Positions 11,377 through 37,015 are shown, numbered from the stretch's first letter. The stretch is DNA of 64,000 nt from an uncultured Holophagales bacterium (GCA_963842525.1 CAWJGT010000025.1:160001-224000), one strand, 5' to 3'. Notes: generated from the letters alone by a model not told the origin. Numbers and translations are program-made.

Positions 11377-11383
11377 TACGCCC

Positions 11384-14575: not shown

Positions 14576-14698
14576 CTTGCTCTCTCCTTCCCAGCGAGCA
14601 GATTGCTCCCCGGAGCGCAAGACCTCCAAACCGGCAGGAAGGCCAGATCTGGCGTAAACGACTCAATACACTGGGGATATATGGTTCACAGCGAGAGA

Positions 14699-14895
14699 AA
14701 AGTTGTCCTGTTGAACAGGACAACTTTGACGGCACTAGGAATTTCTTGTTGCTAACAGCCAGCTTGACACAGGAGGCTCAAGCTACTCAGGGAGATTCAA
14801 GAAACCCACAGAATCTTGTATTCAGGTAGGGAGGAAGGGAAGGTTCTTGGGCTTCTTGAGTTTCTTGGGTTTCTTTGCGCTTCTTGTGTCAGCTA
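14699..14895. promoter_or_regulatory. Putative origin-like region: perfect 14-bp inverted repeat plus iteron-like ~9-bp repeats
   Basis: AAAGTTGTCCTGTT-G-AACAGGACAACTTT (14699-14727); CAAGAA(A/G)C repeats on the minus strand at 14845-14890. Confidence 0.45.
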
Positions 14896-15407: not shown

Positions 15408-16698
15408 TCACGCACGTGCCCGGGCGAGGGTGGCGGCGACATCGCGGGCAAGGTCGGCGGTGGCGGTTTCGCGGCGGGCGGCTTCTTGGAAGACGAGGAG
15501 GGCGGCCAGGGCTTCTCGGGGGAGATCCAGGTCTCGGAAGACGGTGACCATCTCGTCGGCCAGGCGGCGGACTTCGGCAGCACTTCCCTCCCCCATGTAT
15601 GAGATCGCCAGATCCAGGGCGGCGAGGGCGGCATCGAATGTGTTGCCGTCGTCGAGGAACTTCTGGCGGACCTCGGCCAGGAGATCGCGGGCCCGGGCCT
15701 AGTCTCCCAGGCCGGCGGCGATGCGGCCCTCCACCCATTCCAGGCGGACTCGGTCGAGGGTGCTCCCGTGGGCTGCGGCGACTGCCTTCAGCTCCGGGAG
15801 AAGGTCGGCTGCCTCGGAGTGGCGGCCGGCTTTCGAGAGGCTGTCCACGAGATTGTGGCGAACGCAGAGGACGAGGCGCGGCTCCCGGGCCGGGTCGATG
15901 AGTCCGTTTGCCTTCCTCAGGGCCTCGATGGCGGCCTCCGGTTCGCCCAGCTCGATGAGCGCGCCGGCTTTCAAGATGAGGCTTCGGCCGGCGAGGTGCG
16001 GATCCCGGTGCTCGGGTTGACCCTCCAGGAAGAGGGCCACGGCCTGGTCGAGCAGCTCGAAGGCTTCGGGAAAGCGGCGCTGCGCCACGCGAAGGGAGGC
16101 CTTCAGGTCCAGGAGGACAGGCTCATAGCCCAGGGCGTCTTCGGAGCCCTCGGTTCCCGCCTCCCACCAGGAGTCCGACATCTCGAAGCACCGCTCGCCT
16201 GCGGGCAGATCGCCCTGCACTCGGCGGGCGTTGCCGAGCCCGGCCCAGGCAAGGCTTCGGAGCTGGTAGACCCAGGGCTCCTCGAACAGCTCGCTGTCTG
16301 AGATCCTGTCGGCCACGTGGACGGCGAGGTCGGCGAGGTGGAGGGCCTCCGCCGGCTGCTCCGGCGCGGTCTGACAGCTCCTGCGGACCAGCAGCTCGCA
16401 GAGGGCCCCAGCTCACGAAGCGCGGGTCGGCGTGGAGGCGGGCGAGGCGCTCCTCCGGATCGAACGGCGCGAGCTCCTGCAGGAGCCGGGGGGCCTCGGC
16501 TCGTGACCGGGCGAGGGCGGCGTCGATTGACCGAAGACGGGAGGGAGGGCGTTGGCCTGGTGAAGCTCGAGGAGCCAGCCGCCGACCTCTCTACAGCGGG
16601 GACAGAGGTCCAGCAGGTGGAAGAGCTGCTCATTCTGCTCCGCGGTCCGTGGCGAGCAGACGCTCCAAAGCGGCGGTGTCGAGATGCTTGTGCTCCAT
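15408..16698 (-). pseudogene. TPR-like helical repeat protein with N-terminal H-x4-CxxC motif; two frameshifts and an in-frame TAG (15699-15701)
   Basis: Reconstructed MEHKHLDTAALERLL...LFHLLDLCPRC...WALCELL...LGNARRVQGDL...DPAREPRLVLCVRHNL...WVEGRIAAGLGD*ARARDLLAEVR...FDAALAALDLA...REALAALLVF. Confidence 0.7.
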
Positions 16699-19866: not shown

Positions 19867-20325
19867 GGGTGGACCAAGAGGGGGTCAGGGCCTTCCGCCT
19901 CGGGCCGGCGGGGCGAGCGGTGGTGGCTGGAGCTGTCGGTCATTCGGTGGTTATTGTAATTCGTGGGGAGGGTGGGGCTCAAGGGTGGGGGGGAGGGAGT
20001 CGTGGAGGGACTCACGGACGGTCACGGACCCTCACAGACCCTTCGGAGCTTCGGAAGGGCGGCTGCGCCGGGACCCTCACCCCCTGGCCCCCTCTCCCAC
20101 ACGCACTCCCGCCCGGGCGAGAGGGCGTCTTCCCTTCCAGGAGTCGTGGCGGGTAAAATGGTATTATGCGTTCAGGTGCGTGGCCCAACAGGTCTGAGGG
20201 AGAAGCCTAGAAGCGTCGGTGCGGGACTCTCTCGGCACCAAAGAAGGTATATACGATTGGCCATGTCGCAATGTTATCGATTATCGGTGGCCCAACTCGA
20301 CGCACGGCTTCACTGGTGAGTAGAT

Positions 20326-21087
20326 ATGGCGTCAATGGCGTCAACAGATTCTCTGCTACATGAAGCTGAGCGGTGCGTACGCGACCGTCGCTACGCTGCT
20401 GCTCGCAGACTGCTTTCACCTGCCATGGATTCGTTGAGAGAGAAGGAGGATCCTGCTTCACTCTGCCATGCTCTTCTACTCGTTGGCACCTGCCAATTTG
20501 AACTTGGGGTGATTCCAGAGGCCAAGAAGCTCTTTGCGGAGGGCCTAGAAGTCGCGACGCGGAACAGATGCGATCAATGGATTCCAACCTTCCTGCATGA
20601 ACTCTCATTAGTCGCCTACAAAGAAGGAGAACTGACGGATTCTATTTCCTTTTGTGAGCGATCCATTGATATGTCCATTGACATTGCATTTGTGGAAATC
20701 GGACAAGGGATCACCGACGGATATGTCGACTATGATCTTAATCAGCTCGGCGGCGCTCTAAATCATTTGTGCGTTCTATACCAGGAGGCTGGCAATTACG
20801 AGAAGGCATTGAGTATACTAAACATGCTTCGCGCTAACTGTGAGCGCACATCTAACATTGATCTTTTGGGGGTTGTCCTTCATGAACTCGCATTGGCCTC
20901 TTTTGCTGTCGGTCGATACACTGAGGGAGCGCAATTCTTCGTCGATTCAATTCGAGAAAAGAAGAAAGTGGGAAACTTTGCCGGCATCAACAATTCCCTT
21001 AGGAGTCTTCAGACCTGCCTCCTCAAGTATCCGGACTCGCTCAAGGATTCAGAGGTACTCAACTTCTTAAAGGCCTATACCTCATGA
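20326..21087 (+). CDS. Tetratricopeptide repeat protein
   Basis: Repeated A.LHEL..V / ALNHLCVLYQEAGNYEKAL helices; lower GC than the host. Confidence 0.8.
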   Translation: MASMASTDSLLHEAERCVRDRRYAAARRLLSPAMDSLREKEDPASLCHALLLVGTCQFELGVIPEAKKLFAEGLEVATRNRCDQWIPTFLHELSLVAYKEGELTDSISFCERSIDMSIDIAFVEIGQGITDGYVDYDLNQLGGALNHLCVLYQEAGNYEKALSILNMLRANCERTSNIDLLGVVLHELALASFAVGRYTEGAQFFVDSIREKKKVGNFAGINNSLRSLQTCLLKYPDSLKDSEVLNFLKAYTS

Positions 21088-22118
21088 TTCGACCGGTCTC
21101 AGAGTCGCTCGATGAGAAAATGCGCGAGCAGGAAAACTGCCCATTTGACAGTCGAGCGGCAAGAGCGGTACTTGAAGATACTCTCTCTTACCAGTTTCAG
21201 GGGCTTGCTGACCGCCTCCTTGCTAACTTAGCCCTACGGGGCCGCGCAAGCAGTGAAGTTTGGTGGCAGCATTATTTGACGAGAGCGAAACCCTCAGAAA
21301 GCTTCCCAGCGGATTCCCCGGCTATTCTAAGATTTGCTCGGGAGTTTTCGGCCGAGATAGTTGCTGGCCGCATCCGTCCAATGAGCATTCAGGAGCTTGC
21401 CGACGTGGAAATAAGAATTTTTAACGGTTATACAAAACTATGGGATGACTGTCGAATAAATCGTCAGCTTCGACGCCTAGGATCAGGCTACAGGATTGTA
21501 TTCGTGGGCGCAAACCGTCTTCTCGTGAATCAGCTTCGCACATTTCTCGGGAGGCAAGGAAGTCTTCCAATTGATGCGCGCTTTATCTTTGGCCGCGTTG
21601 CACCCATGAGCTCGTGGCCGCTGGGCCCGATTTTTAATTTCGAGAAGGAGATTGCCGTATCTCCTTTTGTCAATGCCCAAGGGGCAGGGTTCAACTACGA
21701 AAACCGTGTCGTTGTTCGGCTGCCCATACTGATGACGCTGCTAAACGACGAGAGGACGGCTAAGTTCCAGGCGCTAAGCACCGTGACCCATGAGATGTAC
21801 CATGTCACCGGCTTTCGGGCACCCTATCCGCGCAGCTATTTGGAGGCCTATTGGGAGGAAGAGACGGCAGGAGATATTTGCCGCTTTACCGAAACTACCA
21901 GGACGTTTGAAGAGATAGCCAGGGAATTTTTCCTTAATTTTGATAGCCCTGTTCTGGCCGAAGTCAACAAACACCTTGGGTATGAGCATTTTCCCGCTCC
22001 ACCATATTCGCTGGAACAGATGATGGAGAAAATGGCAAAGAATGGCGTGATCCAGAAGATAGGCGATGGGTCGTTCAGATGTAGTTCGTTCGAGGAGGGC
22101 AAGCAGTGGCTAGTCTAG
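21084..22118 (+). CDS. Hypothetical protein with HExxH zinc-metallopeptidase motif
   Basis: LSTVTHEMYHVTG...EAYWEEETA; ATGA overlap with the TPR gene. Confidence 0.6.
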   Translation: MIRPVSESLDEKMREQENCPFDSRAARAVLEDTLSYQFQGLADRLLANLALRGRASSEVWWQHYLTRAKPSESFPADSPAILRFAREFSAEIVAGRIRPMSIQELADVEIRIFNGYTKLWDDCRINRQLRRLGSGYRIVFVGANRLLVNQLRTFLGRQGSLPIDARFIFGRVAPMSSWPLGPIFNFEKEIAVSPFVNAQGAGFNYENRVVVRLPILMTLLNDERTAKFQALSTVTHEMYHVTGFRAPYPRSYLEAYWEEETAGDICRFTETTRTFEEIAREFFLNFDSPVLAEVNKHLGYEHFPAPPYSLEQMMEKMAKNGVIQKIGDGSFRCSSFEEGKQWLV

Positions 22119-23264
22119 AGAAAATAGAAATTCCAATCACCGAATTTATCTGCGTGAATTGCCGGAGCAAAGATGAGCCTGAGGTCGCAGAACTTCCTTC
22201 CCCTTATGTGATATTAAACGTACCTCTACCTGCTGCGGGTCAGGAGCCAGTATCGGTGACCGTGGACGTTGAAAGTATTGAATGGAAGAAGTTGGACCCT
22301 GAAGGACTGTATATAGCGCAGGCAAGAGTGAGAATTGTATGTCCCTGTTGCGAATCCGCAAGATCTGTTATGCATCACATCGGCGCATCTCGGCTTGTGC
22401 TCGTATCGGCCGATGTATGCGGGAGTTGCGGAGGGGAGCTGAGCCTTCATGATGAGGAAATTACTTATGATGGCATGGCTGGGAGTGGTCCTTCGGTCGT
22501 GATTAGAGGCACTCTTGCGTGCGCGACGTGTACAGCCGAGAAGATGAGCGTTGAGGCACATGTCCCTGTGCGAGGTATTTTGGATGAAAATTCAGATGTG
22601 CAAGTAGAGATTGGTTTCCAGGGGGCTAGAGTAAGCCCTGCCAAGGTTGAATCAAGGAGGACGCGTCGACTTCTTGTCGTTGTTGCAAGCCCGCGAGATT
22701 CGGATCAGTTGCGCCTGGCGAATGAGTGTCGCATTATTGAAAAGTGCATCGAGAGGGGCAAGGAAAGAGACTTTTTGGAGACTAAGATCATTCAGGCCGC
22801 GACAATTGATGATTGGGCTAGAACGCTTCTAGAGGATGAATACAATATTATCCACTTTTCTGGCCATGGCACGGGAGCTCGGCCTCGTGCTCGAAAAGGA
22901 GAGCGGCCCGTCGTTTGAGGATGATAGCTGCTTGTCGCAGATAGTGCCGCCGCAGGCACTTGGGAACATGCTTGCGGCACATAAAGCCGTTGAATGTGTA
23001 GTTTTAAATGCATGTTTTTCATCTACCCATGTGGAAAGCTCGCTAACAGATGTAGATTACTCAATACTAATGGATGGGCCAATTTCTGATGCTGGCGCTA
23101 TGGAGTTTTCAAGAGGATTTTATGATGCTGTCGCCGCTGGCAAGAGTATTGACTTCGCCTTCGGAGAAGGGTGTCGACGAATCGATTTGAAAGGTCACCT
23201 TGATGCAGAGTTACCGCTGCTTTATGCCAAAGGTGTAAAGGTAACTTCCAAGCCACCTGCATAA
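22106..23264 (+). CDS. CxxC-rich N-terminus fused to a CHAT (caspase-like) domain; frameshift at ~22880
   Basis: CVNC, CPCC, CGSC, CATC; VASPRDSDQLRLANE; IIHFSGHG | GLVLE...VVLNACFS...ISDAGAMEFSRGFY. Confidence 0.75.
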
Positions 23265-23987
23265 TAGGTCGTAAGTTTTTGCCGTTTATCTGTCCGCTGT
23301 GCACCTGTCCCGAGTAGTCCCCGGCGACCACGGCGAGTCTCCGTTGAAGTCGAATCCCCCGGCCAGGGGGGGTGCGTCGGCGCGGAACTGGAGGGAGCGA
23401 AGAGGGGATCCAAGGTCCCAGACCTCAAGCTGCCGTCCCGCAGACCCGCGAGTGCACGAGAGCCGTCGTCCGAGAGGGCCACCAAGCGGACCGGATCGGC
23501 GGCGCGGAGCTGTCTGGGTTTCGGCTTTCGATGGGCCAGATTCCAGAGCCGCAGAGCACCGTCCATGGAACCTGTCAGCGCTAGGCTGCCATCCGGCGTC
23601 ACTGCGACTCCAAGAATTGAGCCGTCGTGCGCGGCCCAGCGGCGAAGACGCCCGGAACTGGGCTCCCAGAGCTGGGTAGCCGGGAGAAGTCGAGATCAGC
23701 GGTTCCCTTGACTGGTACTACGCACATCCCTCTTCCCTCGCCAGGCGCCACTCCCTTTCGACAGAAGCGGATTCGAGCGCGCCCGGGGTCGCTACGAGCA
23801 CCAGGTACTCGGAATGCCGAATCACTCTTTGGAGCTCCTCCCACCATCTCTCGCCTGCTTGGAGATCCGAGAGGTCCTGGCGCACTTTGAACCCCGCCTT
23901 TTTGAGGCACTTCCGAACCTTGTCCGCCAGCTTGAGATCGTCGCTCCGGGCGTAGGAGATGAAGATTCCTGAGCGGGACTGTCTCAT
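23222..23987 (-). pseudogene. TIR-(deleted middle)-WD40 remnant, translationally coupled to the GT4 gene
   Basis: IFISYARSD...WWEELQRVI...SVEREWRLAREEG..VVPVKG...LDFSRLP joined to LWEPSSGR...AHDGSILGVAVTPDGSLALTGSMDGALRLWNL. Confidence 0.7.
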
Positions 23988-25165
23988 GCCGTCCTCGCGC
24001 GCCGCGTCCACCCCGCGGACACGAGCTCTCCATGCAGCTCCTCCAGCGGCCGCAGGCAGAGCCTCCAGTCGTACTGCTCGGCCACCGTGCGGCGAGCTGT
24101 ATCGGCGATCCGCCAGCGCAGCGACTCGTCTTCGAGAAGCCGGCGGACGGCCACAGCGAAGTCCTCGGGCGGGCGAGCGATCAGGAGGTCGTTGCCATCC
24201 GCCACGTGCAGCCCCTCGGCGCCCTTGGGTGTGGCGACCACGGGCGTCCCCAGCGCCATGGCTTCCAGGATCTTGACCCGCGTGCCACCGCCGATCCGCA
24301 GAGGGATCACGCAGACGCGGCTCGTGGCCACACAGGGCCGCACGTCCTCAAGAGGACCGGTGAGGACCACTCCCGCGCCTCGCCGCGCGACCAGGCGGCG
24401 CCCGGCCCGGCCGGGCTCGCCGGTAATCCGCAATATCACCGCGGGGCGCCGGCTCCGGAGGAGCGGGAAGATCCGTTCCAGGAAGTACTCCATTGCGTCG
24501 AGGTTGGCGTGGTACGTCAGCGCGCCGGGATACACCAGGGAGTCCGGCTCGGGATCACCGAAATCGCCTCTCTGCCCCTGCACGTCCGCGCCGTTGGGGA
24601 CGACGCGGACCATCGCGCCCGCAGGGAGGATCGACTCCAGGCTTGTCTGTTCGCCGTCGGAAACCACAGTGCAGGCGTCGTGGCGGGCGGCCACACTGGC
24701 CGTGAAGCTCCCCTTGCGGCGCCACTCTCGCCGATAAAGGAGGCGGCGGAAGAGACGGGGATCGGCGCACCGCTGAAGGAAGACGCCCAGCTCGCAGTTG
24801 TCGAGGATGCGAGGGATGCCCTCGATCTCCGCGCCGTAATATCCCGCGAGGATCTCGGCGGACAGCACCAGGTCGAAGCGCTCGCGCCGAAGGGCCTCAC
24901 GAATCTGGGCCCGCATCTCCTCGCTTCTCCATCTCGCGTTCGTGCGCCCCAGCAGCCCCGGCGGCGGCAGGACGACCGGAGCGAGGACCCGTGCGTGCTC
25001 GGCCAACACGGCGAGTCTCTCGGGCGCAACGCTCCCGGAGCGGGCGAACGAAAGAAAAGTGACCTGATGCCGCTCTGCCAGGCAGCGCACCAGGTGGAAG
25101 ATGCGGAGCTTACCTCCGGTGTCGGCGGGCCAGGGGAAGCGCGAAGAGAGGACCAGGATCTTCAC
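23984..25165 (-). CDS. GT4 (GT-B) glycosyltransferase
   Basis: VKILVLSSRFPWPADTGGKLR...VVPNGAD...PLRIGGGTRVKILEAMALGTPVVAT..GAEG. Confidence 0.85.
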   Translation of the reverse strand: MKILVLSSRFPWPADTGGKLRIFHLVRCLAERHQVTFLSFARSGSVAPERLAVLAEHARVLAPVVLPPPGLLGRTNARWRSEEMRAQIREALRRERFDLVLSAEILAGYYGAEIEGIPRILDNCELGVFLQRCADPRLFRRLLYRREWRRKGSFTASVAARHDACTVVSDGEQTSLESILPAGAMVRVVPNGADVQGQRGDFGDPEPDSLVYPGALTYHANLDAMEYFLERIFPLLRSRRPAVILRITGEPGRAGRRLVARRGAGVVLTGPLEDVRPCVATSRVCVIPLRIGGGTRVKILEAMALGTPVVATPKGAEGLHVADGNDLLIARPPEDFAVAVRRLLEDESLRWRIADTARRTVAEQYDWRLCLRPLEELHGELVSAGWTRRARTA

Positions 25166-26294
25166 GGCGCTCCCGGGCTTTCGGCAGCCGGCCGCGCGAC
25201 AAGGCAGCGCGGGTCGCCCCACGCGCAGTCCGCCGGTTTCCAAAGGCCGACCGGCGATCCGCGTTCAACCCCCAGCCGGCGCGCCACGCGGTCCGTTTTG
25301 GCGGCGAGGAGAAAGAGCGTCTCGACCTGCATTCCCGCCAGCGTTTCGAAATTGGCTACGCCTTTGGCGATGATGAGCCCGCGGCGTTCCCGGAGATCGG
25401 TCAGGGCCGTCGCGAGCTGGCGGCTGAACCTGTGGGGAGGATTCCCCTGAATCCGTGAGCCTCTCCGCACCAGTTCCGGCCGCAGGCCGGGAGCCCAGCG
25501 ACACAGGGCCCGTTCCACGGCCAACACATCCACGTCGCTCTCCACCGGACACTGCTTCGGGATCAGGAGCACTCTCGTTTCGTACTGGCGCTGGAGGCAA
25601 GCCAGGAACGCCACGTCCGCCGCGATCTCACCGTGGTTGTCGGTGAACAGCGCCAGAGGGGCACCGGCGCGGAGCCTCTCTTCGAGCCGCTCCGCCAGAG
25701 GCGCGAAGGCCGCCGCAAACGAAGGCCGGCGGAGGTCACGGGTGACGCTCTCCAGGATCGGCCGGAGGCGTGTCGCGGGCCAGATTTCGAACCGGTTCGT
25801 CGCGGCTGCCAGGAGCAGCCATTCCATCATCGTGGGCTCACCTCGCCGCACCAACCAGCCCGTGAGCCACCGGCCGCAGAGCGCGTCGACCCGCTCGTGC
25901 GGGCGGTGAACCGGGCGCTCAGCGCCGGGAATCCGAGGTCGCGGAAGATCCTTTCGAAAGCTGCCCGCAGATCCTCCCGCGACCAGTCGCTCAGGTCGGT
26001 CCCGGCGAGGATCGCGGCACGGCGGAGAGCCTCGCGGGTGAGCCCGGGACAAGGCCTGTCCAGACGGGTTTCGATCTCGTGAGCGAGCGTCTTCGCGATC
26101 CAGCGCAGGCTCTCTCCCGCTTCCCCGCTGCCTGGGCGGTAAACAGGCCCGGCCGGGCGGACGAGCCGAGCGAGGCTCCCTGACTCCGGCATCTCCACCA
26201 CCACCACCCCGTCGTGCGGTTCCGCGGACCCAGCCGGCGGCAGGTGCTGCCGCAGCTCGGTGAGGATCTCGTCAGGGTGGAGAAAGCGTCTCAT
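25162..26294 (-). CDS. DUF89/ARMT1-like damage-control phosphatase; probable frameshift at ~25915
   Basis: AAATN, LFTDNHGEIAAD, PK..PVESD, IIAKGVANFETL, FLLAAK. Confidence 0.7.
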
Positions 26295-28128
26295 CCCAGG
26301 GCCTTCTGCAGGGAGCGGAAGAGCCGGGGAAGCCCTCCCGGTCTTCGCTCCCGCGCGCGAAGAGGAAGCGGAGGACGGCGGCCCGAGAGCGGGAGATGGC
26401 GTCCATTCCCGACTCCATCCGCGCGCGGAATCGCCGGCCCGCTTGGAGGGCATCCTCCAGGATCAGCCGGCGCAGGCCGGCCCGGCGTTTTTGCCAGGCG
26501 GTTCGCCAGGGAGCGAACGCGTGGGGCATGTTCCGCTCCTCGCGTTCGAGGAAGGCGAAGAGCCGGTCCATCTCTCGGTAGAACGGTTTCTGAAAGCGGC
26601 CGGAGTCCCCGAGGACCCTCTCGAGACCCGCCTCCAGCCAAGGATCACGGCGGTACCAGAGCTCCCCTGCGACGCTCTCGAAGCTGCCGAGGTAATAGAG
26701 GACCAGTGCGGGCAGCAGGTCCGGGTTCCAGTCCGCGCGGCGGCGCAGGACCGGGAAGTCCTGCCAGGGCAAACGCTCGGTCAAGGCCGTCGCCAGCTTT
26801 CGGCGGAAACTCCGGATCTCTTCGGCACCGGCCCTGGGCTCGGCCTCACCAAGACGCTCCAGCTCCTCTGCGAGGGTCCGTCTCTCCCACCGGACCACCC
26901 GTCGCGCCAAGGCCCGGCCGCTGGGGAAACGGTGGGGGCGCACCGGCCGCACCTCGTTCCATTCCACCGGGACGAACAGGTGCGGCGACAGGAAAGGTAC
27001 GTCCTCCAGCGGTTTCAGAGTGAAGAAGCTGGCCGCGGCGATGTCGAGAAAGGAGGCGTGCGCCCACATTCCAACGATGCTGCCGAAGCTCCCCCGGAAC
27101 CTGGGGCGGAAGGCCCTTCCGAGGACCTCCAGGGTGACACAGGCACTGCCACAGACGGAGACCTCGTCGACGAAAAGCGCGTTGTCGGACCCAAAGAGCG
27201 CAGTGCCCGTGCGCGTGTCTGCCAGAAGGGAGTTGAGCAGGGGGCGCGCCGTGTGCGTGAGCGACCCGCGCAAGCCTTGCACTGATCGGTTCATGCCGTC
27301 GAGCAGCAACGGCAGGGAGACGGTGCCGTCCGGCAGCGTGGCCAAGCCGATCAACTCGTCGATGGCGCCGCTGGCGCCGTGCGCGAGGCGCAGGAGGGAC
27401 TCATCGACGTGGGCGCGTAGCGCGCCCGCGGTGAGGGGAGCGTGCCGCATTGCCTCGCCGGCCCGGAAGACCACAGACTTGAGCGCATTCGGGATACGGA
27501 CCCGATCGTCCAGCCCCAGATCGGACAGCTCGAGGAGGACAACCTCCAGAGGGGCATCCAGGAGATCGGCCGGATCGAGCCCCAGTTGCCGAGCCTCAAT
27601 TGCCACGGCCCGTGCCTCGGAATCGCCGGAGCGCAACCATGCAGCGAGGCGGGCTCGCAGGGGCGCTGCGGGAGGCTCTGCCAGGCGAGCGCTGTCCTCC
27701 GGATCGGTGGTGAGGAGGGAGAGCAGGTTGACCGCGAAGCTCTCCCGCGTGAGCCCTTTGATGCGCACCGGCTCGCACCGGATGCGCCTTTCCTCCACCA
27801 CCTCCTCCAGAATGCGGCGTGCCGCCTCCAAGTAGGGAAAGGTGCCGCGCTCCAGGAAGAACACACTCTCGGCGCGGCATCGCAGGGCGGCGCGCACCAC
27901 CGGCAGGACGAGGAAGGGGATCTCCTCGGGGAGGATGAGCCGGTTCGCCAACCAGCGGTCGTTGGTGCTGTAGTCCTCGGCGAGCCCTACGTCCGGCGGA
28001 TCGGTCTCTGATACATCTTCCCACCAGCGGGCGAAGAGAAACTCGCTGCCGCCGAACGACGCGACCACCTCCGGCTGCAGCTCGCGGAACCGGTCGACGA
28101 GCGAGACCTCGCCAGCCACGACGCTCAT
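26272..28128 (-). CDS. Hypothetical protein with phosphoribosyltransferase-like motifs
   Basis: VFFLERGTFPY and LFVDEVSVCGSACVTL resemble the PRT PPi and PRPP loops; ATGA overlap with the upstream gene. Confidence 0.45.
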   Translation of the reverse strand: MSVVAGEVSLVDRFRELQPEVVASFGGSEFLFARWWEDVSETDPPDVGLAEDYSTNDRWLANRLILPEEIPFLVLPVVRAALRCRAESVFFLERGTFPYLEAARRILEEVVEERRIRCEPVRIKGLTRESFAVNLLSLLTTDPEDSARLAEPPAAPLRARLAAWLRSGDSEARAVAIEARQLGLDPADLLDAPLEVVLLELSDLGLDDRVRIPNALKSVVFRAGEAMRHAPLTAGALRAHVDESLLRLAHGASGAIDELIGLATLPDGTVSLPLLLDGMNRSVQGLRGSLTHTARPLLNSLLADTRTGTALFGSDNALFVDEVSVCGSACVTLEVLGRAFRPRFRGSFGSIVGMWAHASFLDIAAASFFTLKPLEDVPFLSPHLFVPVEWNEVRPVRPHRFPSGRALARRVVRWERRTLAEELERLGEAEPRAGAEEIRSFRRKLATALTERLPWQDFPVLRRRADWNPDLLPALVLYYLGSFESVAGELWYRRDPWLEAGLERVLGDSGRFQKPFYREMDRLFAFLEREERNMPHAFAPWRTAWQKRRAGLRRLILEDALQAGRRFRARMESGMDAISRSRAAVLRFLFARGSEDREGFPGSSAPCRRPWDETLSPP

Positions 28129-30431
28129 GGAGTGGCCTCCACCAGGAGAAAGCTGCTCGCCCCGTACTCTATGCCGCCCTTGAACAGGAGACACTCCCCC
28201 CGCTGGTTTCTCTCCAGGGCCTGGAGAGAGCCGCCGCGACGGAGCAGGACCCGCGGATCCCCGGAGCTGGCGAGGAGAAGCGCATCCCTCGCGGGCGGGC
28301 CGAAAGAGGTTGCGACTTGCCGGACCAGGCGGGCGGTACCCTCCAGAGTGAGCCCCTTGCGCGTCGAATCGGTATAGGTGTTCACCAGCAGGAGCAGGTC
28401 GGGGTCCTCGGTCGAGGCCAGCACGGAGTGTCCCAGAGTGGCGCGGCGGCACGCGATGGCGAGGGCGCCTGCCTGGAGGGAGAACTCGCCGGGCAGGAGC
28501 GGCGCCTTCCATGGCCTCTCTTCGTAGCCCCACCTCCCTAAATTGGCGCGGACCTCCGCCGGGTCTTCGTCGTCTTCCAGCCGACAGGCCACCGGATGGC
28601 CGCTGACCGCATCCTTCAGGAATGGACCGGCGCTCTCCGCCCGTGTGATCCGTCCGGGCTCGCGCCCCGCCACGTGCTGGCTGGCCTCGGCGAAGAGGCG
28701 CCGCGAAAAGGTCCGGCTCAGAGAGAAACCGTGGAGGACATGCGTCAGGTCACCATAAAAGTCCAGGACTGGCGCCCGGCCGGTATCCGGGTCGGACTCG
28801 AGGAGGTCCACCGGTTGGCCGTAGCGCAGAATACGGCATCCGCTGACCGCGAAGACGGCACCGGACAGGTCTTCGATCCTGGCCACGGCCAGCCGTGTCC
28901 CGGCGTCCTGTACGAGCACAGTCTGCGGTCCGCGCAGCTCCTCACGGAAATGGCTCCAGAGCTTGCCCTGGGTCATGGCGAAGTGGCCCATGTTCCAGAA
29001 GAGATTCCCGTTCCCGTTCAGCACGGCCACTACAGAAGCCGCCCGTGGATCCTCCTCCAGAAACGAGGCAGGGCTCCGGCGCAACACCCGGTTCATTTCG
29101 ACCATGTGGCTGGGGTCCCAAGGCGACAGGCCGCGGACGATCCCGTCCTGCCATACCAAATTCTGGCCGGCTGTGTGGACGGCAAGCCGCAAGCGGAAGT
29201 GCTTCAGAGGGATCGGCACGGCATGGACGGTGAGATCGCGCCCGTCACAGCTTGCGATGGTTGTCTCCCAGACCGTCAGCGGGTGCCCCTGGCTCACCAC
29301 GGCCCATCGGAGCGCCGCCGGACGGCTCCGGGAGCCCCGGCGCACAGGGGTACCGAGGAAAGAAGCCTGCCAGCGGATCTCCCGCTGCCGTGCTCGCGTG
29401 TTCTCGCCAAGGAGCCGGACGGTACCGAGCCGCTGCGAAGCGACCAACGGCAGATCCGAGACCCGGAGCACCGCGCCCCATTGAAGCGATGGGTGGCGCG
29501 CCAGACAGGCGGCGAGCGGCCCCAGCTCGAGATCGACGGCGGCGGCTCCGTATCGCGCCAGCCGTTCCAGCTCCGGCCGGGTCTCGGACAGGATGCACGG
29601 CGCGGAGGCCACGTCGAGCACATGGGAGCGGTGGAGACCGGTCAGCCCGCGCGGCAGGCGAGCGGCGAGGGGGAGCAGCCGATTCCCTTCGCCAATCACC
29701 CGCCCGTCACCGGCGAGGACGTGGCGGACGAACAGGGAATCGTGAAGGGCCAGGTCCGGGGACAGGCCTCCGCAGGCGCCGAACAGCAGAAGGCTGTGCA
29801 GACCGAACTGCTGGCAGAGCACTTCGATGAGAGGGACGATCTGCGACCCGTACACCGAAGTCAGGTGGACGAAGAGCGTGCTCCCCCGCGGTCCGGACGC
29901 CAGCACCGCCCGCAGCAGAGGACTGGAGCAGCGCGTGATCTCCCATCGTCCGCGGCGGCGCGAGAGCCACGCCTCCAGCAGCCGCTCACCCTGGAAGCTA
30001 AAGACAGCCTGCTCGATATGCCCATCCGGAGCCAGGGAGGCCAGGATTCTTCGGTAGTCTTCCGCGAAATCCGAGGCCTCGTCGATCAACCGCAGCCGCT
30101 CGCGCGGCACCCCGAGAAGGCGAAGCAGCAGGAGGTTCTGCAGGCGGCGGGTGGCACCGACCACGTTGCTGATCAATGCGTCCTCTGCGATGGCGAAAAA
30201 CCGCTCCTGGAGGTTGGGATGCGGGCGCTCGATCTCGCGACGCGACCAGATGTTCGGGAGCACGGAGGCCAGCTTGTGCTCGCCGAACAACCCAGCGTGG
30301 ACGTGGATGCGGCCGGGAGCGCGCCAGACACGCTCGGGCACGGCAGTGAGCGCGTAGGCCATGGGATCGACGCAGACGCCGTCGAGGTCGAGGGCGTAGG
30401 CCTGAGCGACCGGGTCAGCGACTGGCGGCAT
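28125..30431 (-). CDS. Nucleoside phosphorylase (PNP/UDP-1) domain fused to a NAGPA/phosphodiester-glycosidase-like domain
   Basis: LFGACGGLSPDL, AAAVDLE, VLRVSDLP; C-terminal VLNG, AVSGCRILRYG, GLTLEGTARLV..ARDALLL..SG. Confidence 0.6.
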   Translation of the reverse strand: MPPVADPVAQAYALDLDGVCVDPMAYALTAVPERVWRAPGRIHVHAGLFGEHKLASVLPNIWSRREIERPHPNLQERFFAIAEDALISNVVGATRRLQNLLLLRLLGVPRERLRLIDEASDFAEDYRRILASLAPDGHIEQAVFSFQGERLLEAWLSRRRGRWEITRCSSPLLRAVLASGPRGSTLFVHLTSVYGSQIVPLIEVLCQQFGLHSLLLFGACGGLSPDLALHDSLFVRHVLAGDGRVIGEGNRLLPLAARLPRGLTGLHRSHVLDVASAPCILSETRPELERLARYGAAAVDLELGPLAACLARHPSLQWGAVLRVSDLPLVASQRLGTVRLLGENTRARQREIRWQASFLGTPVRRGSRSRPAALRWAVVSQGHPLTVWETTIASCDGRDLTVHAVPIPLKHFRLRLAVHTAGQNLVWQDGIVRGLSPWDPSHMVEMNRVLRRSPASFLEEDPRAASVVAVLNGNGNLFWNMGHFAMTQGKLWSHFREELRGPQTVLVQDAGTRLAVARIEDLSGAVFAVSGCRILRYGQPVDLLESDPDTGRAPVLDFYGDLTHVLHGFSLSRTFSRRLFAEASQHVAGREPGRITRAESAGPFLKDAVSGHPVACRLEDDEDPAEVRANLGRWGYEERPWKAPLLPGEFSLQAGALAIACRRATLGHSVLASTEDPDLLLLVNTYTDSTRKGLTLEGTARLVRQVATSFGPPARDALLLASSGDPRVLLRRGGSLQALERNQRGECLLFKGGIEYGASSFLLVEATP

Positions 30432-32277
30432 CACGGTCGCCCCCGGCCGGCGACGCCGGGTACCAGAAAGAGCGCATCGCCTCGGCCGCACGCACGGCCT
30501 CGGCGATCTCGGTCAGGTCCGCCAAGGCACGCTCACGCTCCGCTTTGATCACTCCAGAAACCGCCGGCAGCTCTCGGAGGATCGCCTGGAGGAGGTGGAG
30601 CGACCACAGGGCGACCGACAGATGGGGAGTCCCTCGCACGCGCTGCTCGGCGACCAGGATACGCCCCAGGCGCCGACGGACCCGCAGTCGCAGCTCGTCC
30701 ATTTCCGGCGAGAGATGGAGGGTCAGGAGATCCAAGGAGCTCCGCATGCCGGGGAACCGGCACACCTCGCGGCGGAAGTAGCCGCGGCTGATGAGGCTCT
30801 CAATGTGGGGAGTCACGCGCAGGTCACCCATCTCGAGCTCCGGCACGAGATTCAGGTAAGCACCGCGTCGCAGGTAGGGGATCACCGTCCGAGCGAGCTC
30901 CCAGGTCGACTCCGGATCGATCGCGGGGACCAGCCAGATCGCGTTGATCCCGGGCTTGAGGCCTGCCTGCAACGCCAGCTCGAGAGCACGGTGGTTCTGT
31001 TCGACCGTGGTCCCCTTGCCCAGGAGATCCAGCGATTCCTGGGAAAAGGACTCCACACCGAACGCCACGATCCGGACTCCCATCTCCCGCAGGAAGGCGG
31101 CCCTCTCCGCGGTCATCCGATCGGTGGTGGTCTTGACGAGGCCCGGCTTGCTGTTCAGACCACGCGCCACGAGCAGACGGCCGATCCGCCGGAAGTTGTC
31201 CGGCGCGAACCATATCTCGTTGTCCTCGAAGTGCAGGCTGTCGCACTCGGAAAAATGAGCGGCGATTTCGGCCACTACGTCCACGGGCACGCGAGGCGCC
31301 AGGGCCTTGGGCGAGCGGCACCAGTAGCAGGGTTTGCCGCACCGCTGGCTGGTGAGCACCCGCCATGGCCGCAGCCCGACCATATCGTAGGGGAGGGCGG
31401 TCGCCGCGCTCGGCCCCAGTACACCGGCCCGGCTCTCGTAGGTGGCGAGCCGCCAGATGCTCGGGAACGGGAGGCGCTTCTCTGGAGCTCGCGGCATAGG
31501 GGACGCCGCCGGGACCGGCCGGCGTTCCGCGCCGGGCCGGAGGAGCCCCGGGACATCCGGAACCGGCCCGCTCCGGCAACTCCTCACAAGCTCTCGCAGC
31601 GGCTCCTCGCCGTCGCCCGCGATCACGGCGTGAATCGGTAGAGCGCGAAACCAAGCCGCTAGGTCCACGGTGCGCAGGTGGGGTCCTCCCAGGACGAGCC
31701 GCGCGCCGGGAGCGCGCTGTCCGATCTCGGCGAGCAAGTGGAGGTCGGGGTCGACGGAATAGACCGCCTGCACAATGAAATCGAAGTGTTCCTCGGCCAA
31801 GACATTCCAGAGGCGCAGCCCCGCCGCGGGAAACTGCCGGATCCTGCGCTTCGGCTCGAGATTGGGATCGTAGACCAGGGCGTCGCAGGCCATGTCGCCG
31901 CGCCGTAGGAGAGCCGCCAGCCGCTCCGTAGGGCCATACGGCCGGACGAACCGCAGGGAGGGTGCGAAGGAGTTGACGAACAGCACACGGACGAACTGCT
32001 CGTGGAGCCTCCCGCCTGCCCGCAGGAACGCGCGCGGAAAGCGGGGGTCGAGAAGGCTCCGCCGCCAGCCGGCTGCCGAGAGGTGTGAAGCCTGGAGCAG
32101 ACCCTCTTTCTGCGGGGTCGCGGAAGTCCAGGCACGAAGGGCGCTGGGGAGACGAGAAAACGGGCGTAGGCGGGCCTCTCCCAGCCGGAGCCCATGACGG
32201 AAGCTGACGATCACCCCGGCACCCTCGCGAGCCAGGAGACCAGGGATTTCGGCCAGGTGCGAGCGGTGGCCGGTCAT
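30415..32277 (-). CDS. B12-binding-domain radical SAM protein
   Basis: PYGPTERLAALL, LVLGGPH, IAGDGEEPL, TSQRCGKPCYWC, FEDNE, FGVESFSQESL.LLGK. Confidence 0.85.
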   Translation of the reverse strand: MTGHRSHLAEIPGLLAREGAGVIVSFRHGLRLGEARLRPFSRLPSALRAWTSATPQKEGLLQASHLSAAGWRRSLLDPRFPRAFLRAGGRLHEQFVRVLFVNSFAPSLRFVRPYGPTERLAALLRRGDMACDALVYDPNLEPKRRIRQFPAAGLRLWNVLAEEHFDFIVQAVYSVDPDLHLLAEIGQRAPGARLVLGGPHLRTVDLAAWFRALPIHAVIAGDGEEPLRELVRSCRSGPVPDVPGLLRPGAERRPVPAASPMPRAPEKRLPFPSIWRLATYESRAGVLGPSAATALPYDMVGLRPWRVLTSQRCGKPCYWCRSPKALAPRVPVDVVAEIAAHFSECDSLHFEDNEIWFAPDNFRRIGRLLVARGLNSKPGLVKTTTDRMTAERAAFLREMGVRIVAFGVESFSQESLDLLGKGTTVEQNHRALELALQAGLKPGINAIWLVPAIDPESTWELARTVIPYLRRGAYLNLVPELEMGDLRVTPHIESLISRGYFRREVCRFPGMRSSLDLLTLHLSPEMDELRLRVRRRLGRILVAEQRVRGTPHLSVALWSLHLLQAILRELPAVSGVIKAERERALADLTEIAEAVRAAEAMRSFWYPASPAGGDRDAASR

Positions 32278-33192
32278 GGATCGATCCGTGGACCGTAGAC
32301 GATCCGAAAGCCATTGCGGTCACCGCATTCGCCGGCCGGCATGTGCCCTCGGAAGAAGCTGAGCATCCGTCCCGGCGCCGACCCGCTTCCCCAGGAGCCG
32401 CCGCGCAGAACCCGATGTTCGGACAGGCCCGGCGCATAGACATCCTGGCACCATTCCCAGACGTTCCCCAGCATGTCGCTGAGCCCCCAGGGATTGCAGC
32501 GGCCATGTCCGGGCCTGGAATGCTCCTCGACCGGCTCCGGCGCCGGCCTGCACGCGAAGCGGCCACACCGGTGCACGGCATGGTCATCGTCAAGCTCATC
32601 CCCCCACCAATAAGCGCTCCGCGAACCCGCGCGGCACGCCAACTCCCATTCCGCCTCGCTCGGCAGTCGAAAGATCCGGTCTTCCCCAGGGCCGGACTGC
32701 TCGCGTTCGCACTCTGTCAGCCAGACGGCAAAGGCAGTCGCGTCGAACCAGGAGAGGCAGGTTGCAGGCCAGCGGCCCCCCTCGTCCACGTGGACCCCGG
32801 GCCTTCGAGGCCAACGCCAACAGGCGCCCGAGACGCGTCCCCATCCATTCCCCTGGAACACCCAGGCGCTCCCTTGCAACTCGGCGGTCGTCCGGTAGGG
32901 AGTTTCCTGGGCTTCACGGGCCCGGACGAAAGCGGCAAACGAGAGCTCGGCTGACGGGCCGGGCCAGCATGTGGAACGGGGCGACGGCGACGGCGCGGAG
33001 GGGCGCATCCACATAGCCCGACTCTGTGGCGCCATAGCGGCGCACTGTCTCCGCAGGCGGGTCCGGGTTCCCCATCGGGAAGAGGATGGGGGCGTCTCCT
33101 TCGGGCGGGATGCGGCACATCCCGGCCAGGGCCCGCAGAGCGGGGTCGTGCTGGAAGGCCGCGGCCACGAGCTGCGTGCTCCCGGCGGCCAT
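32274..33192 (-). CDS. FGE-sulfatase (SUMF1/EgtB/PvdO) domain protein; frameshift at ~32945
   Basis: FPMG...PFHMLARPVS | SWFDATAF, FRLPSEAEWELACRAG, NPWGLSDMLGNVWEWC, RVLRGGSW, GFRIV; TGATG coupling to the radical SAM gene. Confidence 0.85.
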
Positions 33193-34483
33193 CAGAGGAA
33201 CTCCAGATCTCCCGGATGGCCGTACTTCCGCAGCTCGGAGAGAAAGCGGTCGACGACAGCTGTCTCGCTCGCTTCCAGGGGGCCGAGGTCGAGAAGAGGC
33301 TCTATCCGCGTGGTCAGGCGGCGGGCCTTGCAGACTGGAGGCCGCTGGCAGGCGCTGCAGAGGGCGCGGGCGCGCAGAACCGAGGACCAGATCTCGTCGA
33401 GCGTCTGTTCCAGGAGGTTGCCGATCCGATTGGCCGGTTGCCCCTTCCCCTCCGAGCACAGGTAGACGTCCCCGGTGTAGGCAACGCTCGCCATCCATGG
33501 ATGGCCTACACAGTGCGTGGGAGTGGGGGGCACCATCGCCCGCTCTCCCGCGGCCACCACTTCGGCGAAATAGTCCAGAGCGAAGAAGAGGCGGAGGCCG
33601 CTTCCCTCGACCAGGCGCAGGCCGGCTTCCTGGCTCCGCCGTACTTCGCCGAGGATCTCCGCCGGGATCTGGCTGGGGCCTGTGTAGTCCACCACGGGAC
33701 GGAACGCAATGTAGTCGATCCGCCCACCGGCGGCGATGATCTCAAGGGCTCGCCGCACGACCGGGATCAGGTCGCGGTAATTCACCTCGTTGACGACGAT
33801 TCCCAGCCCGAAGCTCGTGGGCGCATCGCCCAGCCGCTCGGCGACGATGCCGATGTTCCGCCAGACGCGGGCCGCGTGACGGGTGTCCTGGAGACCGTGG
33901 AAGCGTGCGTAGATCTCCGGAGTTGCGGCGTTGGCGCTGATGCGCAGGAACTCGGGCGCCGCTGCAAGCAGCCGGTCGACGAGAGGCTCGGTCAAGGGGC
34001 TGCCATTGGTGAAGAGCCCTGCGCGGAGTCCGAGCCGGCGTGCTATCTGGAGCCCATCAGGGGTGTGAGGATTGAGCAAGGGCTCGCCGCCGCCTGTGAA
34101 GATCACTCCCTTGACGCCCCCTTCGGCCATCCGCTGGAGGATGAGTTCCATGTCCTCCCTTGCCATGAACCGGTGCCCGGCGTTCTCCGCGGTGCTCTTC
34201 TCCCAATCCCCGTAGGTGCAGAACGGGCAGGCGTAGTTGCAGTCGAGGGTCGCGTCGAGTTCCATGGTGACAGGCCGCGCGTCGAAAGGTCGGCCCTGGA
34301 GAACGTGGGCGAGGTTCTCCGCATGCCAGAGCAGCTTGATTTCGTGCTGGACATCGAGGGGACGTCCGGGATCCCCATGGCCGCCAGGAGATCGATGGCG
34401 CTCCGTGCTCGCGGCAGGTCCGCGGTATCGGCCAACGCCTGCCGCAAGGCGTGTTCGAGGGCACTTCCGGGGGAGTCGTTCAT
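33192..34483 (-). CDS. Radical SAM protein with SPASM/twitch domain; probable frameshift at ~34360
   Basis: ELDATLDCNYACPFC, FTGGGEPL, FTNG, CVGHP..V.YTGDVYLC..IGNLLEQTLDEIW..C..C...CK. Confidence 0.85.
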
Positions 34484-34504
34484 ATGATCGGCATGTCTTC
34501 TCAG

Positions 34505-36081
34505 AGGCTGTGAAGGAATCGCGGGTCCGAGATTTGAAGGCGGAGGGCGGTAACAAGGCACATAATAGATGTGAGGATCCTAAAGCGTGCGCGGTCAGGG
34601 GCCACATCGTATCCGACGCGAGCTAAGGCAGCGACAAGCGGTCGAAAACAGACTTGGACAGGGGAATTACCCTCCTTTTCGCCGCGAGGCCCTGACCTTT
34701 ATGCCGATGCGACGCAGCCCGCGCCCAGCGAGAGGGTGCGCATCAGGTTGTGGGCAATGGCGAACCAAAGCAGCACCGCTCGGGCCTTGTGCAGGCCTCG
34801 CACTAACAGACGTTGCAGCCCGCGGTTGCGAGCCAGAGCGTTGACACATTCCACGCTCGACGCCCGCTGCTTGTAGATCTCTTTGGCCTCCGGTGTGCCC
34901 ATGCGTTGGCGCCACTGCGCGATTGCCGGTGAATGGGTCGACAGAGGCACATACGGATCGCGCGTCTTGTCCTTCGGCTTGGCGACCGGCGCATAGACCG
35001 TGGTGCCCAACTCGCTGGCCTTCTCGATATCTTTCAAACCGGCAAAACCACCATCGACCAAGCTCTCTGGCGGAATCACTTCATAGCGCTCTTCCAGTTG
35101 CTCCAGCATCGGCACCAACTGACCCTGATCGCTGCCGCTGTTGCTGACATCCACTCCCACCACGATCTGCGTCTCGGCGTCGACCGAAAACTGACCGTTG
35201 TACGCTGGACGAAATCCTCCATCCCCCATCTTCATCACCCGTGCCTCGGCATCCGTCGTCGACACCCGCGCCTGGTCTCTCTTCTCCGCTGGCTTCTCGG
35301 CCGCAACCTCTGCCATCTGCGCCAACGCCGCCTTGACCCGATGCTGGCGGTCCTCCGCCGCGCGCTGCCGGGCTGCCGTCTGACGACGATTCGTCGCCTC
35401 CGGGTCTTTCTTCAAGCTCCTCGCGCAGGCGTTCAACCTGCTCCTGTGCCTCTTGTAGACAGCGCTCCAGACTCGATTGACGCCGAAACGAGGCCGCACG
35501 GCACTGGCACGCACACGGATGCCGTCCTGCGACACACGGTTCAGTGTCACCAGCTTCTGCTCCATCAACACCGCCACGCTCTGCGTCAGCACCTGATCGA
35601 GAAATTCCTCGTGCTGCACCCGAAAGTCCGACAAAGAGTGGTGGTTCACCCGATACACCCCCCAAGATCCACCGATACGCATCGTGTTGAAGCGTCAGAC
35701 GCTCCAGGGCTCGCGCGCTGCCCACGCCCTCAATCGTGGCGTACAACCATAAGGCCATGTAGATCCGCGGGTCGATGGCTGGACGGCCCGCACCCCCCTC
35801 CACCGATTGCACCTCCGCGTACAGAGGGCTCAGATCCAGGGACTCCACGAACTCCCAGACGGCACGCGCAACGTGATCCGGCGGCAGAAGACTTTCCAGG
35901 TCCACGGGGCGCAGTTCCATCTGCGACCGGTTAGGAACCACCAAACGAGGAACCCCTTTCGCTTTGGCGGGCTCAGCACTCACTTCCGGCGCAGGGATAG
36001 GGAACAGAGTGTCGCTCATGCAGTAAGTATCTCATGGATACGCTCCGCTACGAACCGCTTACCGGGATTTTTTCACAGGCT
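34505..36081 (-). mobile_element. IS1182-family insertion sequence
   Basis: Imperfect terminal IRs AGGCTGTGAAGGAATC / AGCCTGTGAAAAAATC; CTCAG direct repeat at 34500-34504 and 36082-36086. Confidence 0.8.
34699..36019 (-). CDS. IS1182 transposase (DUF772 + DDE), about three frameshifts
   Basis: LLPPDHVARAVW, GRPAIDP, SARALE, HHSLSDFR, SQDG.RVRASA, STTDAEARVMK, PAYN.Q, LVDGGF, YKQRA..VE. Confidence 0.85.
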
Positions 36082-36399: not shown

Positions 36400-37015
36400 C
36401 CGAAAACGAAACCAGTTTCGTTTTTTGCGACGCGGAAAAGCCTGCTGGGATTGGTTTTTTTTCGATTTTGACGGATCAAAAAGATGGTTCAAACTGGTGT
36501 AGAAAGGCAACCGCAGGAAGGTAGTTAAAACCAGTGGTCTGGAGGGGGTTGGGAGGGACGCCGCGGCTGGCGCGGGACGGGCCACCTGAGCGGAGGGAGA
36601 GACACGGACGAACACGGACGGACACTCCCCCGCCCGGACCCTCACCCCGACCCTCTCCCACCCGCACTCCCTTCCTTCCGGGAGAGGGCGCCCCCAACCA
36701 AAAAGCCGGACTGACCAAAACTTACGTTCTGATCAGTAGTTTTCCACACCGGACGGCGTCGCGGAAATGCCCGTCCGGCTTGAGTTTGCTCGCGCTGAAC
36801 CGTCATCCAGACCCCCCCGCGGCCGTCTCTACCACGGAAAACGAAACTGAGTTTCGTTTTTTGCGGCGCGGAAAAGCCCGCCGGGATTGGATTTTCGCGA
36901 TTTTGAGGGGGCGAAAAAGGCGGTTCAAACCCCTGTAGAAAGGCAACCGTAGGAAGGTAGTTAAAACCAGTGGTCGGAGGGGGGCGGGAGGGGGGCGCCG
37001 CGGCTGGCGCGGACG
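36400..37015. repeat. ~175-bp degenerate direct repeat (36400-36578 and 36836-37015)
   Basis: Shared core TGTAGAAAGGCAACCG(C/T)AGGAAGGTAGTTAAAACCAGTGGTC. Confidence 0.85.

Follow-up and report, generated by a model that had tools for sequence, protein, structure and literature searches.

A window of 64,000 nt from the genome of an uncultured Holophagales bacterium (CAWJGT010000025.1:160001-224000, GCA_963842525.1; contig C25 of a 9.95-Mb genome with 67% G+C) carries eight successive reading frames on the minus strand, from 34483 down to 23222; all positions given here are those of the whole window. The first seven form an operon of 10.5 kb, in the order radical SAM enzyme with a SPASM domain, FGE-like protein, class-B-like radical SAM enzyme, nucleoside phosphorylase (PNP)-like protein fused to a NAGPA-fold domain, a 618-aa protein, DUF89 phosphatase and GT4 glycosyltransferase, and the eighth is what is left of a TIR-WD40 gene (Table 1). 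An earlier reading of the sequence alone (the sequence-only reading) had described the eight genes as joined by start/stop overlaps, and each of these lies where it had been placed: TGATG at 33192, between the SPASM enzyme and the FGE-like gene, ATGA at 32277, 28128 and 23987, and GTGA at 25165, together with gene overlaps of 17 nt (30415-30431) and 22 nt (26272-26293). The tight coupling is not a product of chance: gene order and ATGA-type junctions are repeated on a metagenome contig (L002). Our reading of the locus, to which we give a probability of roughly 45%, is that of a rare operon, acquired horizontally, whose enzymes make a ribose-containing metabolite in the cytoplasm; what they make could be nucleoside-like or a small glycoside.

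Table 1 Operon genes, neighbouring genes and other features of the window
Feature	Position	Strand	Basis and remarks
Radical SAM enzyme with SPASM/twitch-type C-terminal domain	33192-34483	-	First operon gene; frame-broken near 34374
FGE-sulfatase-fold protein	32274-33192	-	Pfam; frame-broken near 32941
Second radical SAM enzyme, class-B (B12)-like	30415-32277	-	Pfam Radical_SAM, weak NCBIfam matches
Fusion of nucleoside-phosphorylase-like middle part and C-terminal NAGPA/DUF2233-fold (phosphodiester glycosidase-like) domain	28125-30431	-	Pfam, fold
618-aa protein, unnamed family, with PRPP-transferase-like core	26272-28128	-	Fold and motif
DUF89/ARMT1-type metal-dependent phosphatase	25162-26293	-	Pfam; frame-broken near 25900-25908
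GT4-family glycosyltransferase	23984-25165	-	Pfam; final gene of the conserved set
Truncated TIR domain, 89 codons	23718-23987	-	TIR_2; its ATG overlaps the GT4 stop (ATGA)
WD40 fragment	23222-23662	-	Pfam WD40; other frame than TIR, ends where low-G+C DNA starts
Insertion sequence (IS) element	34493-36080	-	DDE transposase in two frames; DDE_Tnp_1, DUF772
Tyrosine integrase with Arm DNA-binding domain	11360-12679	+	
TPR gene	15699-16412	-	
TIR_2 + NB-ARC + DUF7779 gene, 532 aa	17796-19394	-	In 58% G+C DNA
Block of low G+C (52-55%) that holds TPR and weakly CHAT-like genes	20326-23264	+	Converges on the WD40 remnant
Repeat of about 70-90 nt	about 20044-20135 and 36623-36704		Brackets the operon stretch
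HTH_17 protein	39677-40873	+	
Tandem duplication of 366 nt	42153-42868		Two copies, 79% alike
Acido-Lenti-1 RNA motif	6806-6851	+	49.7 bits, gathering score 37

The 618-aa protein is matched by no model of Pfam (E ≤ 0.01), NCBIfam or PADLOC, the type I phosphoribosyltransferase model (Pfam Pribosyltran) being among those that do not match it at E ≤ 0.01, and its best rows in the ESM Atlas score at most 0.84 and are all unnamed clusters. Its predicted structure (pLDDT 74.8) models as a transferase of the type that uses phosphoribosyl pyrophosphate (PRPP). In a comparison by VIA with 48161 chains, the two top structural matches were 8a0c_A, the CriT part of Bcs3, the H. influenzae b capsule polymerase (Z 9.4, root-mean-square deviation (rmsd) 6.2, 222 aligned, residues 639-935), and 7shg_B, a gPRT (Z 8.0, rmsd 5.9, 202 aligned), followed by purine phosphoribosyltransferases (PRTases) at Z 4.2-4.8. 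Like CriT and gPRT, the modelled protein would have a PRTase-like core with large helical inserts, and it may share with them an acidic pair that closes a strand just ahead of a glycine loop. That element is also the most conserved stretch of the family: hydrophobic residues followed by D-E-x4-G are kept in 20 aligned sequences, with D321 nearly invariant, E322 invariant in close orthologues and G327 invariant in all 20. In the model, a strand (317-321) is followed by the D-E pair, a short loop with the invariant glycine and then a helix. Strand, acidic pair, glycine loop and helix are the classic shape of a PRPP loop, and the conserved element would be independent sequence support for a PRPP-type transferase. 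The label 'PRTase-like' given in the sequence-only reading draws on fold and motif, and finds no counterpart among the family models.

Distant relatives of the protein point to its partners. Against 1.84 billion representative proteins the family profile found 38 at E ≤ 0.001, 13 of them at ≤ 1e-30, and 26 weaker relatives match the catalytic core. A domain scan took in 24 of these 26 and left out P0055, a 115-aa fragment, and P0061 (6219 aa). DUF89 is fused to the core in 4/24 (P0075 and P0076 by Pfam, P0070 and P0069 by phmmer with the DUF89 of the operon itself) and a HAD phosphatase in 2/24 (P0057 and P0063). One of the 24 (P0056) carries a radical SAM/SPASM part that matches the first enzyme of the operon at 2.8e-40, and B12-binding domains were seen in two (P0063, and P0079 just under the cut-off). 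Further partners are a PfkB kinase (P0076), a GHMP kinase (P0063), a SIS domain (P0067) and methyltransferase, cytidine deaminase, LigT-like and GNAT domains (P0065). Through these fusions the 618-aa protein is linked in function with a phosphatase and with the two types of radical SAM enzyme, and its chemistry is placed among phosphosugars and nucleosides. The core also occurs in giant multi-domain proteins, namely P0061, P0063 (3523 aa) and P0065 (3220 aa). A complex prediction for the 618-aa homologue and the DUF89 protein of L002 scored 0.00, on which the predictor gives no verdict.

CriT is described as having a PRTase-like five-stranded core with helical bundles, in which D680/E818 replace the DD motif, and as transferring ribofuranose-5-phosphate from PRPP, after which the HAD-type CrpP strips the phosphate (PMC10299916). 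According to a second report, gPRT/PRP enzymes follow the same two-step logic (PMC11231755). As in CriT/CrpP and gPRT/PRP, the phosphatase in the operon and its relatives stands next to the transferase or is fused to it. The operon pair resembles these known PRPP-transferase/phosphatase pairs and differs from them in transferase family, phosphatase family and companion set: the 618-aa protein has no sequence similarity to CriT or gPRT, the phosphatase is DUF89 and not HAD (the two kinds of fusion among the distant relatives notwithstanding), the companions of the pair are two radical SAM enzymes, an FGE-fold protein and a PNP-NAGPA fusion, and capsule or O-antigen export genes are missing from the operon.

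The families named in the sequence-only reading for the other genes (SPASM radical SAM, FGE-sulfatase, nucleoside phosphorylase, DUF89, GT4, TIR and WD40) all have Pfam matches. The SPASM enzyme matches Radical_SAM (3.6e-14) and SPASM (6.1e-06, 26.9 bits, cut-off 21.5), and its CxxxCxxC motif (C39, C43, C46) as well as C282, C300, C336 and C342 are invariant in 11 sequences. Its best profile matches in the PDB are DesII (2.8e-07) and cytosylglucuronate decarboxylase (BlsE, 3.6e-06), and these nearest solved SPASM relatives both act on sugar nucleotides. The C part of the FGE-like protein matches FGE-sulfatase at 3.2e-36 (125.7 bits, cut-off 23.3; profile positions 48-254 of 255), and the best PDB relatives of the protein are SUMF2 and FGEs. 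In FGE a C-terminal cysteine pair is catalytic; inspected by eye, without an FGE alignment, the C-terminus of the window protein shows no cysteine pair at the expected place, and the end of the L002 protein has, also by eye, two adjacent cysteines in a different arrangement. For the second radical SAM enzyme, which had been called a B12 radical SAM, the radical SAM part stands (Pfam Radical_SAM, 6.3e-11) and the B12 type is suggested by weak NCBIfam matches (rSAM_ocin_1 1.2e-11, BzaD 2.5e-07, HpnR 1.5e-05). A B12-binding domain is not listed for the window protein and scores under the cut-off of 32.1 bits in the orthologues of L002 (16.7) and of a Micrarchaeota metagenome-assembled genome (L003; 24.8). 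No PDB sequence is related to this enzyme at E ≤ 0.01.

In the fusion protein, the middle part matches PNP_UDP_1 at 2.1e-07 (31.1 bits, cut-off 25.1; the L002 orthologue falls under the cut-off with 22.9) and DeoD-type PNP at 8.3e-07, over profile positions 207-341 and chain residues 71-212 of 235, which is the second half of the fold only; the G-x-C-G and S-D stretches align with DeoD. The C-terminal domain, as modelled from 8 sequences (m27172c9eb1e9, pLDDT 70.1), has beyond doubt the NAGPA/DUF2233 fold. Over model residues 1-369 its VIA rows score Z 17.1 (to 3ohg), 14.6, 14.2, 14.0 (14.0-14.2 to NAGPA, the 'uncovering enzyme') and 12.8, the next row dropping to 3.7, and Foldseek matches it to DUF2233/NAGPA at E 2.2e-05 with probability 1.00. 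The earlier term NAGPA-like is accordingly right as to fold; the Pfam NAGPA model matches neither the window domain nor the L003 protein at E ≤ 1. Unlike NAGPA and DUF2233 proteins, the operon domain is predicted to be cytoplasmic and is fused to a PNP-like part. The C part of the DUF89 protein matches the ARMT1-like Pfam model at 2.9e-16 (60 bits, cut-off 25), and the last gene matches Glyco_trans_1_4 (2.4e-25) and Glyco_transf_4 (1.4e-09). PRPP ribosylation followed by dephosphorylation is also the logic of BtrL/BtrP in butirosin formation and of nucleoside antibiotics, in clusters with radical SAM and GT4-type enzymes. By this description the operon, with its radical SAM and GT4 genes beside the putative transferase and the phosphatase, would be alike, but it contains no aminocyclitol or base-forming genes.

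The gene set is conserved, and very rare. On L002 (11108 nt) the FGE-like C-terminal end, B12-type radical SAM enzyme, PNP fusion, 618-aa homologue, DUF89 and GT4 follow each other in the same order and on the same strand as in the window. Identities to the window proteins are 53% for the B12-type radical SAM enzyme, 54% for the PNP fusion, 47% for the 618-aa homologue, 36-43% for DUF89 and 60% for GT4. Between the B12-type enzyme and the PNP fusion, L002 has an extra gene for an AlkB-like 2OG-Fe(II) oxygenase (2127-2803 of that contig, 2e-30), the N-terminal part of which seems to lie in another frame and which the window operon does not have. A search of 5.8 billion clustered proteins brought up 6 relatives of the 618-aa protein and 7 of the PNP fusion; for the SPASM enzyme there are 11 at 52-65% identity, after which the next match falls to 34%. 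Homologues of the 618-aa protein and of the fusion occur on equally sized contigs (10962, 11108 and 11663 nt), as do homologues of the 618-aa protein and of the SPASM enzyme (10937 and 11663 nt).

The operon is an acquired accessory operon. A foreign origin is supported by the distribution of the 618-aa family, which was found in 0/40 relatives and 0/400 phylum genomes, and by the lack of any match to the operon DNA in 5/5 genomes of the same genus. Third-position G+C is 0.72-0.83 in the operon, below the 0.88-0.95 of flanking core genes. No locus was found in genome contigs scanned with the two motifs of the 618-aa family (profile A1), or in viral contigs scanned with profiles A1 and A3. In L003 an STT3-type oligosaccharyltransferase gene is followed by a SPASM enzyme (39% identical to that of the window), a protein of 431 aa that consists of the NAGPA-fold domain by itself, and a B12-type radical SAM enzyme of 926 aa (6216-14855 of that locus), and among 65 loci the free NAGPA-fold protein finds only L002 and L003. 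The neighbours of the next closest genome-borne SPASM homologue (L004, 40%) are unrelated. The sequence-only reading had recognised no named cluster with these genes, and we found neither a cluster nor a paper with the set; no paper was found that joins DUF2233 with radical SAM, or DUF89 with radical SAM, glycosyltransferase and phosphoribosyltransferase together, and the matches listed for DUF89 and phosphoribosyl looked unrelated, judged by title and the start of the abstract.

These results support the earlier picture of an island-borne operon of families that act on ribose, nucleosides, PRPP or sugar phosphates, for which we propose the following route. The 618-aa PRPP-type transferase would place ribose-5-phosphate on an acceptor and the neighbouring DUF89 phosphatase would strip the 5-phosphate. 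Tailoring of the sugar or the acceptor would then fall to the FGE-fold protein and to both radical SAM enzymes, of which one is B12-type, the PNP/NAGPA-fold fusion would cut a ribosidic or sugar-1-phosphodiester bond, and GT4 would attach a hexose. The analysis establishes which genes belong to the set, how they are ordered and conserved, which folds they encode and which domains are fused; that PRPP is the donor, what accepts the ribose, how the steps follow one another and what is made are inferred. PRPP transfer followed by DUF89 dephosphorylation would be the best-supported core of the mechanism. No membrane segments were predicted in any operon protein, where an STT3 control shows many, the operon has no transporter gene, and neither it nor L002 contains genes for exporters, flippases, polymerases or initiating transferases. 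For these reasons we lean towards a soluble cytoplasmic product.

Several results weigh against this reading. The fold match of the 618-aa protein lies at Z 8-9.4, a range that VIA calls middling, with an rmsd of about 6 Å; Foldseek finds nothing in the PDB for its model at E ≤ 0.001, and profiles A1 and A4, searched against all PDB sequences, return chance rows only, with no 8a0c, 7shg or PRTase at E ≤ 10. Equal contig size is no proof that two proteins lie on the same contig, so the linkage taken from equally sized contigs is not proven. The best named relative of the GT4 protein is TIGR03087 of the PEP-CTERM/XrtA system, which is exopolysaccharide-type (221.1 bits, cut-off 316.65, aligned over the full length), and the related trio of L003 adjoins an STT3 oligosaccharyltransferase; these two likenesses would favour a glycan over a small molecule. 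Finally, in this assembly three biosynthetic genes out of seven each fall into two frames, so the window copy may do nothing.

Whatever the product, this copy could be a dead relic, its promoter severed by the IS element and its genes inactivated by frameshifts, a view that is compatible with any other and that we hold to be somewhat short of an even bet. The IS element, 1588 nt long with imperfect terminal inverted repeats and with four further copies in the genome at 98-99% identity (contigs C1, C3, C9 and C30), ends 9 nt short of the start codon of the first operon gene, on its upstream side. It is missing at this site from a close relative in a soil metagenome run (X1), whose contigs are mostly 90-95% identical to the window and cover 23.9-34.6 kb (32 records: 3 at ≥99%, 7 at 95-99% and 22 at 90-95%), since one of them joins 34492 straight to 36081 and so skips 1588 nt. 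In the window, the SPASM gene truly starts with the ATG at 34483, the end coordinate given in the sequence-only reading, its N-terminal 36 codons being in a different frame, the N part of the FGE-like protein is in a different frame from its C part, and the 414-aa DUF89 orthologue of L002 aligns to two window frames. The X1 relative has one base fewer at 32941, which opens the FGE-like frame over 305 codons, and one base more after 34374, which opens the SPASM frame over 430 codons, orthologues being 411-448 aa long; it therefore has intact versions of at least these two genes. A protein 98% identical to the 618-aa protein from another assembly (P0002) matches it in frame over residues 118-400 only. 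On the other side, single-base assembly errors do occur, in that rpoB of this assembly likewise appears to be frameshifted, with rpoC and two dnaE-type genes reading through unbroken, the contrast in rate (3 breaks in 10.5 kb vs 1 in about 15 kb) is weak, and an IS can also supply an outward promoter. The rpoB gene itself (G000, contig C9, about 670,500) lies in two frames near its N-terminus, with a Cys-rich, zinc-ribbon-like insert after the break, and this is either an assembly indel or an oddity in an essential gene. A search of sequencing runs gave one DNA run, with a small share (0.07), and no RNA run among those listed. The operon may be switched off or decaying in its host genome.

Among other chemistries, the serious rival is a module for a surface or cell-envelope glycan, unlikely as we judge it, in which transferase and DUF89, in the manner of CriT/CrpP and gPRT/PRP, would add ribofuranose to a growing oligosaccharide, GT4 would extend it and the radical SAM enzymes and the NAGPA-fold domain would modify sugars or phosphodiesters. 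Besides the TIGR03087 and STT3 likenesses, the nearest solved folds of the 618-aa protein are glycan ribofuranosyltransferases, the substrates of NAGPA are glycan phosphodiesters according to PDB entry titles, and GT4 genes adjoin distant SPASM homologues in five loci (L006, L023, L030, L032 and L042). Against such a module, an initiating transferase, polymerase, flippase and ABC exporter are all missing from the operon and L002, every operon protein looks soluble, and the cytidine deaminase, methyltransferase, LigT and PfkB kinase fused to distant relatives of the 618-aa protein point to nucleoside or phosphosugar chemistry.

A radical adenosylation, in which a radical SAM enzyme adds 5'-deoxyadenosyl, the PNP-like domain removes adenine and the rest tailor the ribosyl chain, appears improbable. 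Its models are HpnH/HpnG in hopanoid and MqnE/MqnB in futalosine formation, in which a radical SAM enzyme and a PNP_UDP_1 nucleosidase make a 5'-deoxyadenosyl adduct and then release adenine. The operon likewise joins radical SAM, here two such enzymes, with a PNP_UDP_1-type domain, the motif region of which aligns with DeoD including the S-D site. The PNP-like part matches HpnG at E 1.1e-04, but with 21.8 bits it remains far under the cut-off of 187.1, and no hopanoid or menaquinone genes lie nearby. DesII and BlsE, to which the SPASM enzyme is closest, are sugar-nucleotide and not adenosylating enzymes, and this chemistry has no role for the PRPP-type transferase and phosphatase, the best-supported link.

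The sequence-only reading had inferred a modified nucleoside or nucleotide, possibly for anti-phage defence or as a signal tied to TIR activity. That the eighth gene is a true remnant proved correct: the TIR part covers profile positions 1-77 of 122 (TIR_2, 3.4e-18) and then meets a stop, the TIR and WD40 parts do not share a frame and are separated by stops, and an NTPase domain is missing, so a TIR-STAND architecture, with complete TIR, NTPase and repeats in one frame, is not present there. The WD40 fragment (3.3e-06) has its closest paralogue in the genome at 39% identity, and the remnant ends where DNA of 52-55% G+C starts. The tie to TIR activity is not supported. On L002, the only other locus that can be read past GT4, an oppositely oriented gene comes next, with no TIR behind GT4, and the window GT4 is about 12 C-terminal residues longer than that of L002, which is what the loss of its natural end at an accidental junction would lead one to expect. 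The X1 relative shares the GT4/TIR junction down to 23897 and diverges beyond, which is not independent evidence because it is of the same lineage.

The surroundings, from 11 to 41 kb, look like an integrative island, the ends of which may be marked by the integrase and the HTH_17 protein; no tRNA gene that could serve as its attachment site was found in the window. The island has STAND, TIR and CHAT-type genes of its own, and the TIR of its TIR-NB-ARC gene is not close to that of the remnant, given the lack of a tblastn match at 1e-05. The most fitting view of the TIR-WD40 remnant is that of a further decayed STAND-type gene of the island and not of a part of the pathway, its overlap with the operon most likely being an accident of island decay. 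The repeat that brackets the operon stretch is present in very many copies, 80-98% identical, in the host and in all five genomes of the same genus.

The defence proposal is left with the island setting, the junction shared by X1 and a generic likeness to viperins. Of 10 translated pieces run through PADLOC, only the SPASM enzyme (pVip, 3e-15) and the WD40 piece (E 0.0029) matched, no defence system was called for the operon, and the PADLOC check proposed earlier spoke against defence, as does the absence of the 618-aa family from the viral contigs. A viperin-type system was rejected: the SPASM enzyme shares the radical SAM core of the prokaryotic viperins but has a SPASM-type C-terminal domain, lies nearest to DesII and BlsE and scores 46.2 bits against a cut-off of 180 (NCBIfam NF038283). 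We consider the defence or TIR-linked signal very improbable, and hardly less so a variant in which PRPP-type transferases of an undescribed superfamily, in tandem with DUF89, yield a new ribose-derived, nucleoside-like molecule against phages or competitors on a defence-type island, possibly with a TIR/STAND partner. Under this variant the giant fusions found elsewhere (up to 6219 aa) would point to a widespread, so far undescribed pathway. A ribosomally synthesized and post-translationally modified peptide cluster was also rejected, with no precursor gene seen and the nearest solved relatives of the SPASM enzyme acting on sugar nucleotides.

If the operon does make a ribose-containing metabolite, the 618-aa protein would be the founding member of a new PRPP-using transferase family that is not linked by sequence to the known ones, and DUF89, hitherto regarded chiefly as a 'damage-control' phosphatase, would acquire a part in biosynthesis, taking off the 5-phosphate as partner of the transferase. 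From the domain fusions one obtains a map of enzymes that work together. At 10.5 kb the operon is small enough to be synthesized from an intact metagenome version and expressed.

Three further observations concern the rest of the window. An Rfam scan matched only the Acido-Lenti-1 motif, far from the operon. Between 36000 and 42000 no frame has the codon-position G+C pattern of real genes, and the G+C skew is as high as 0.20 (38-40 kb); the stretch may have decayed or be non-coding. The tandem duplication beyond it lies inside a gene with two FKBP_C domains.

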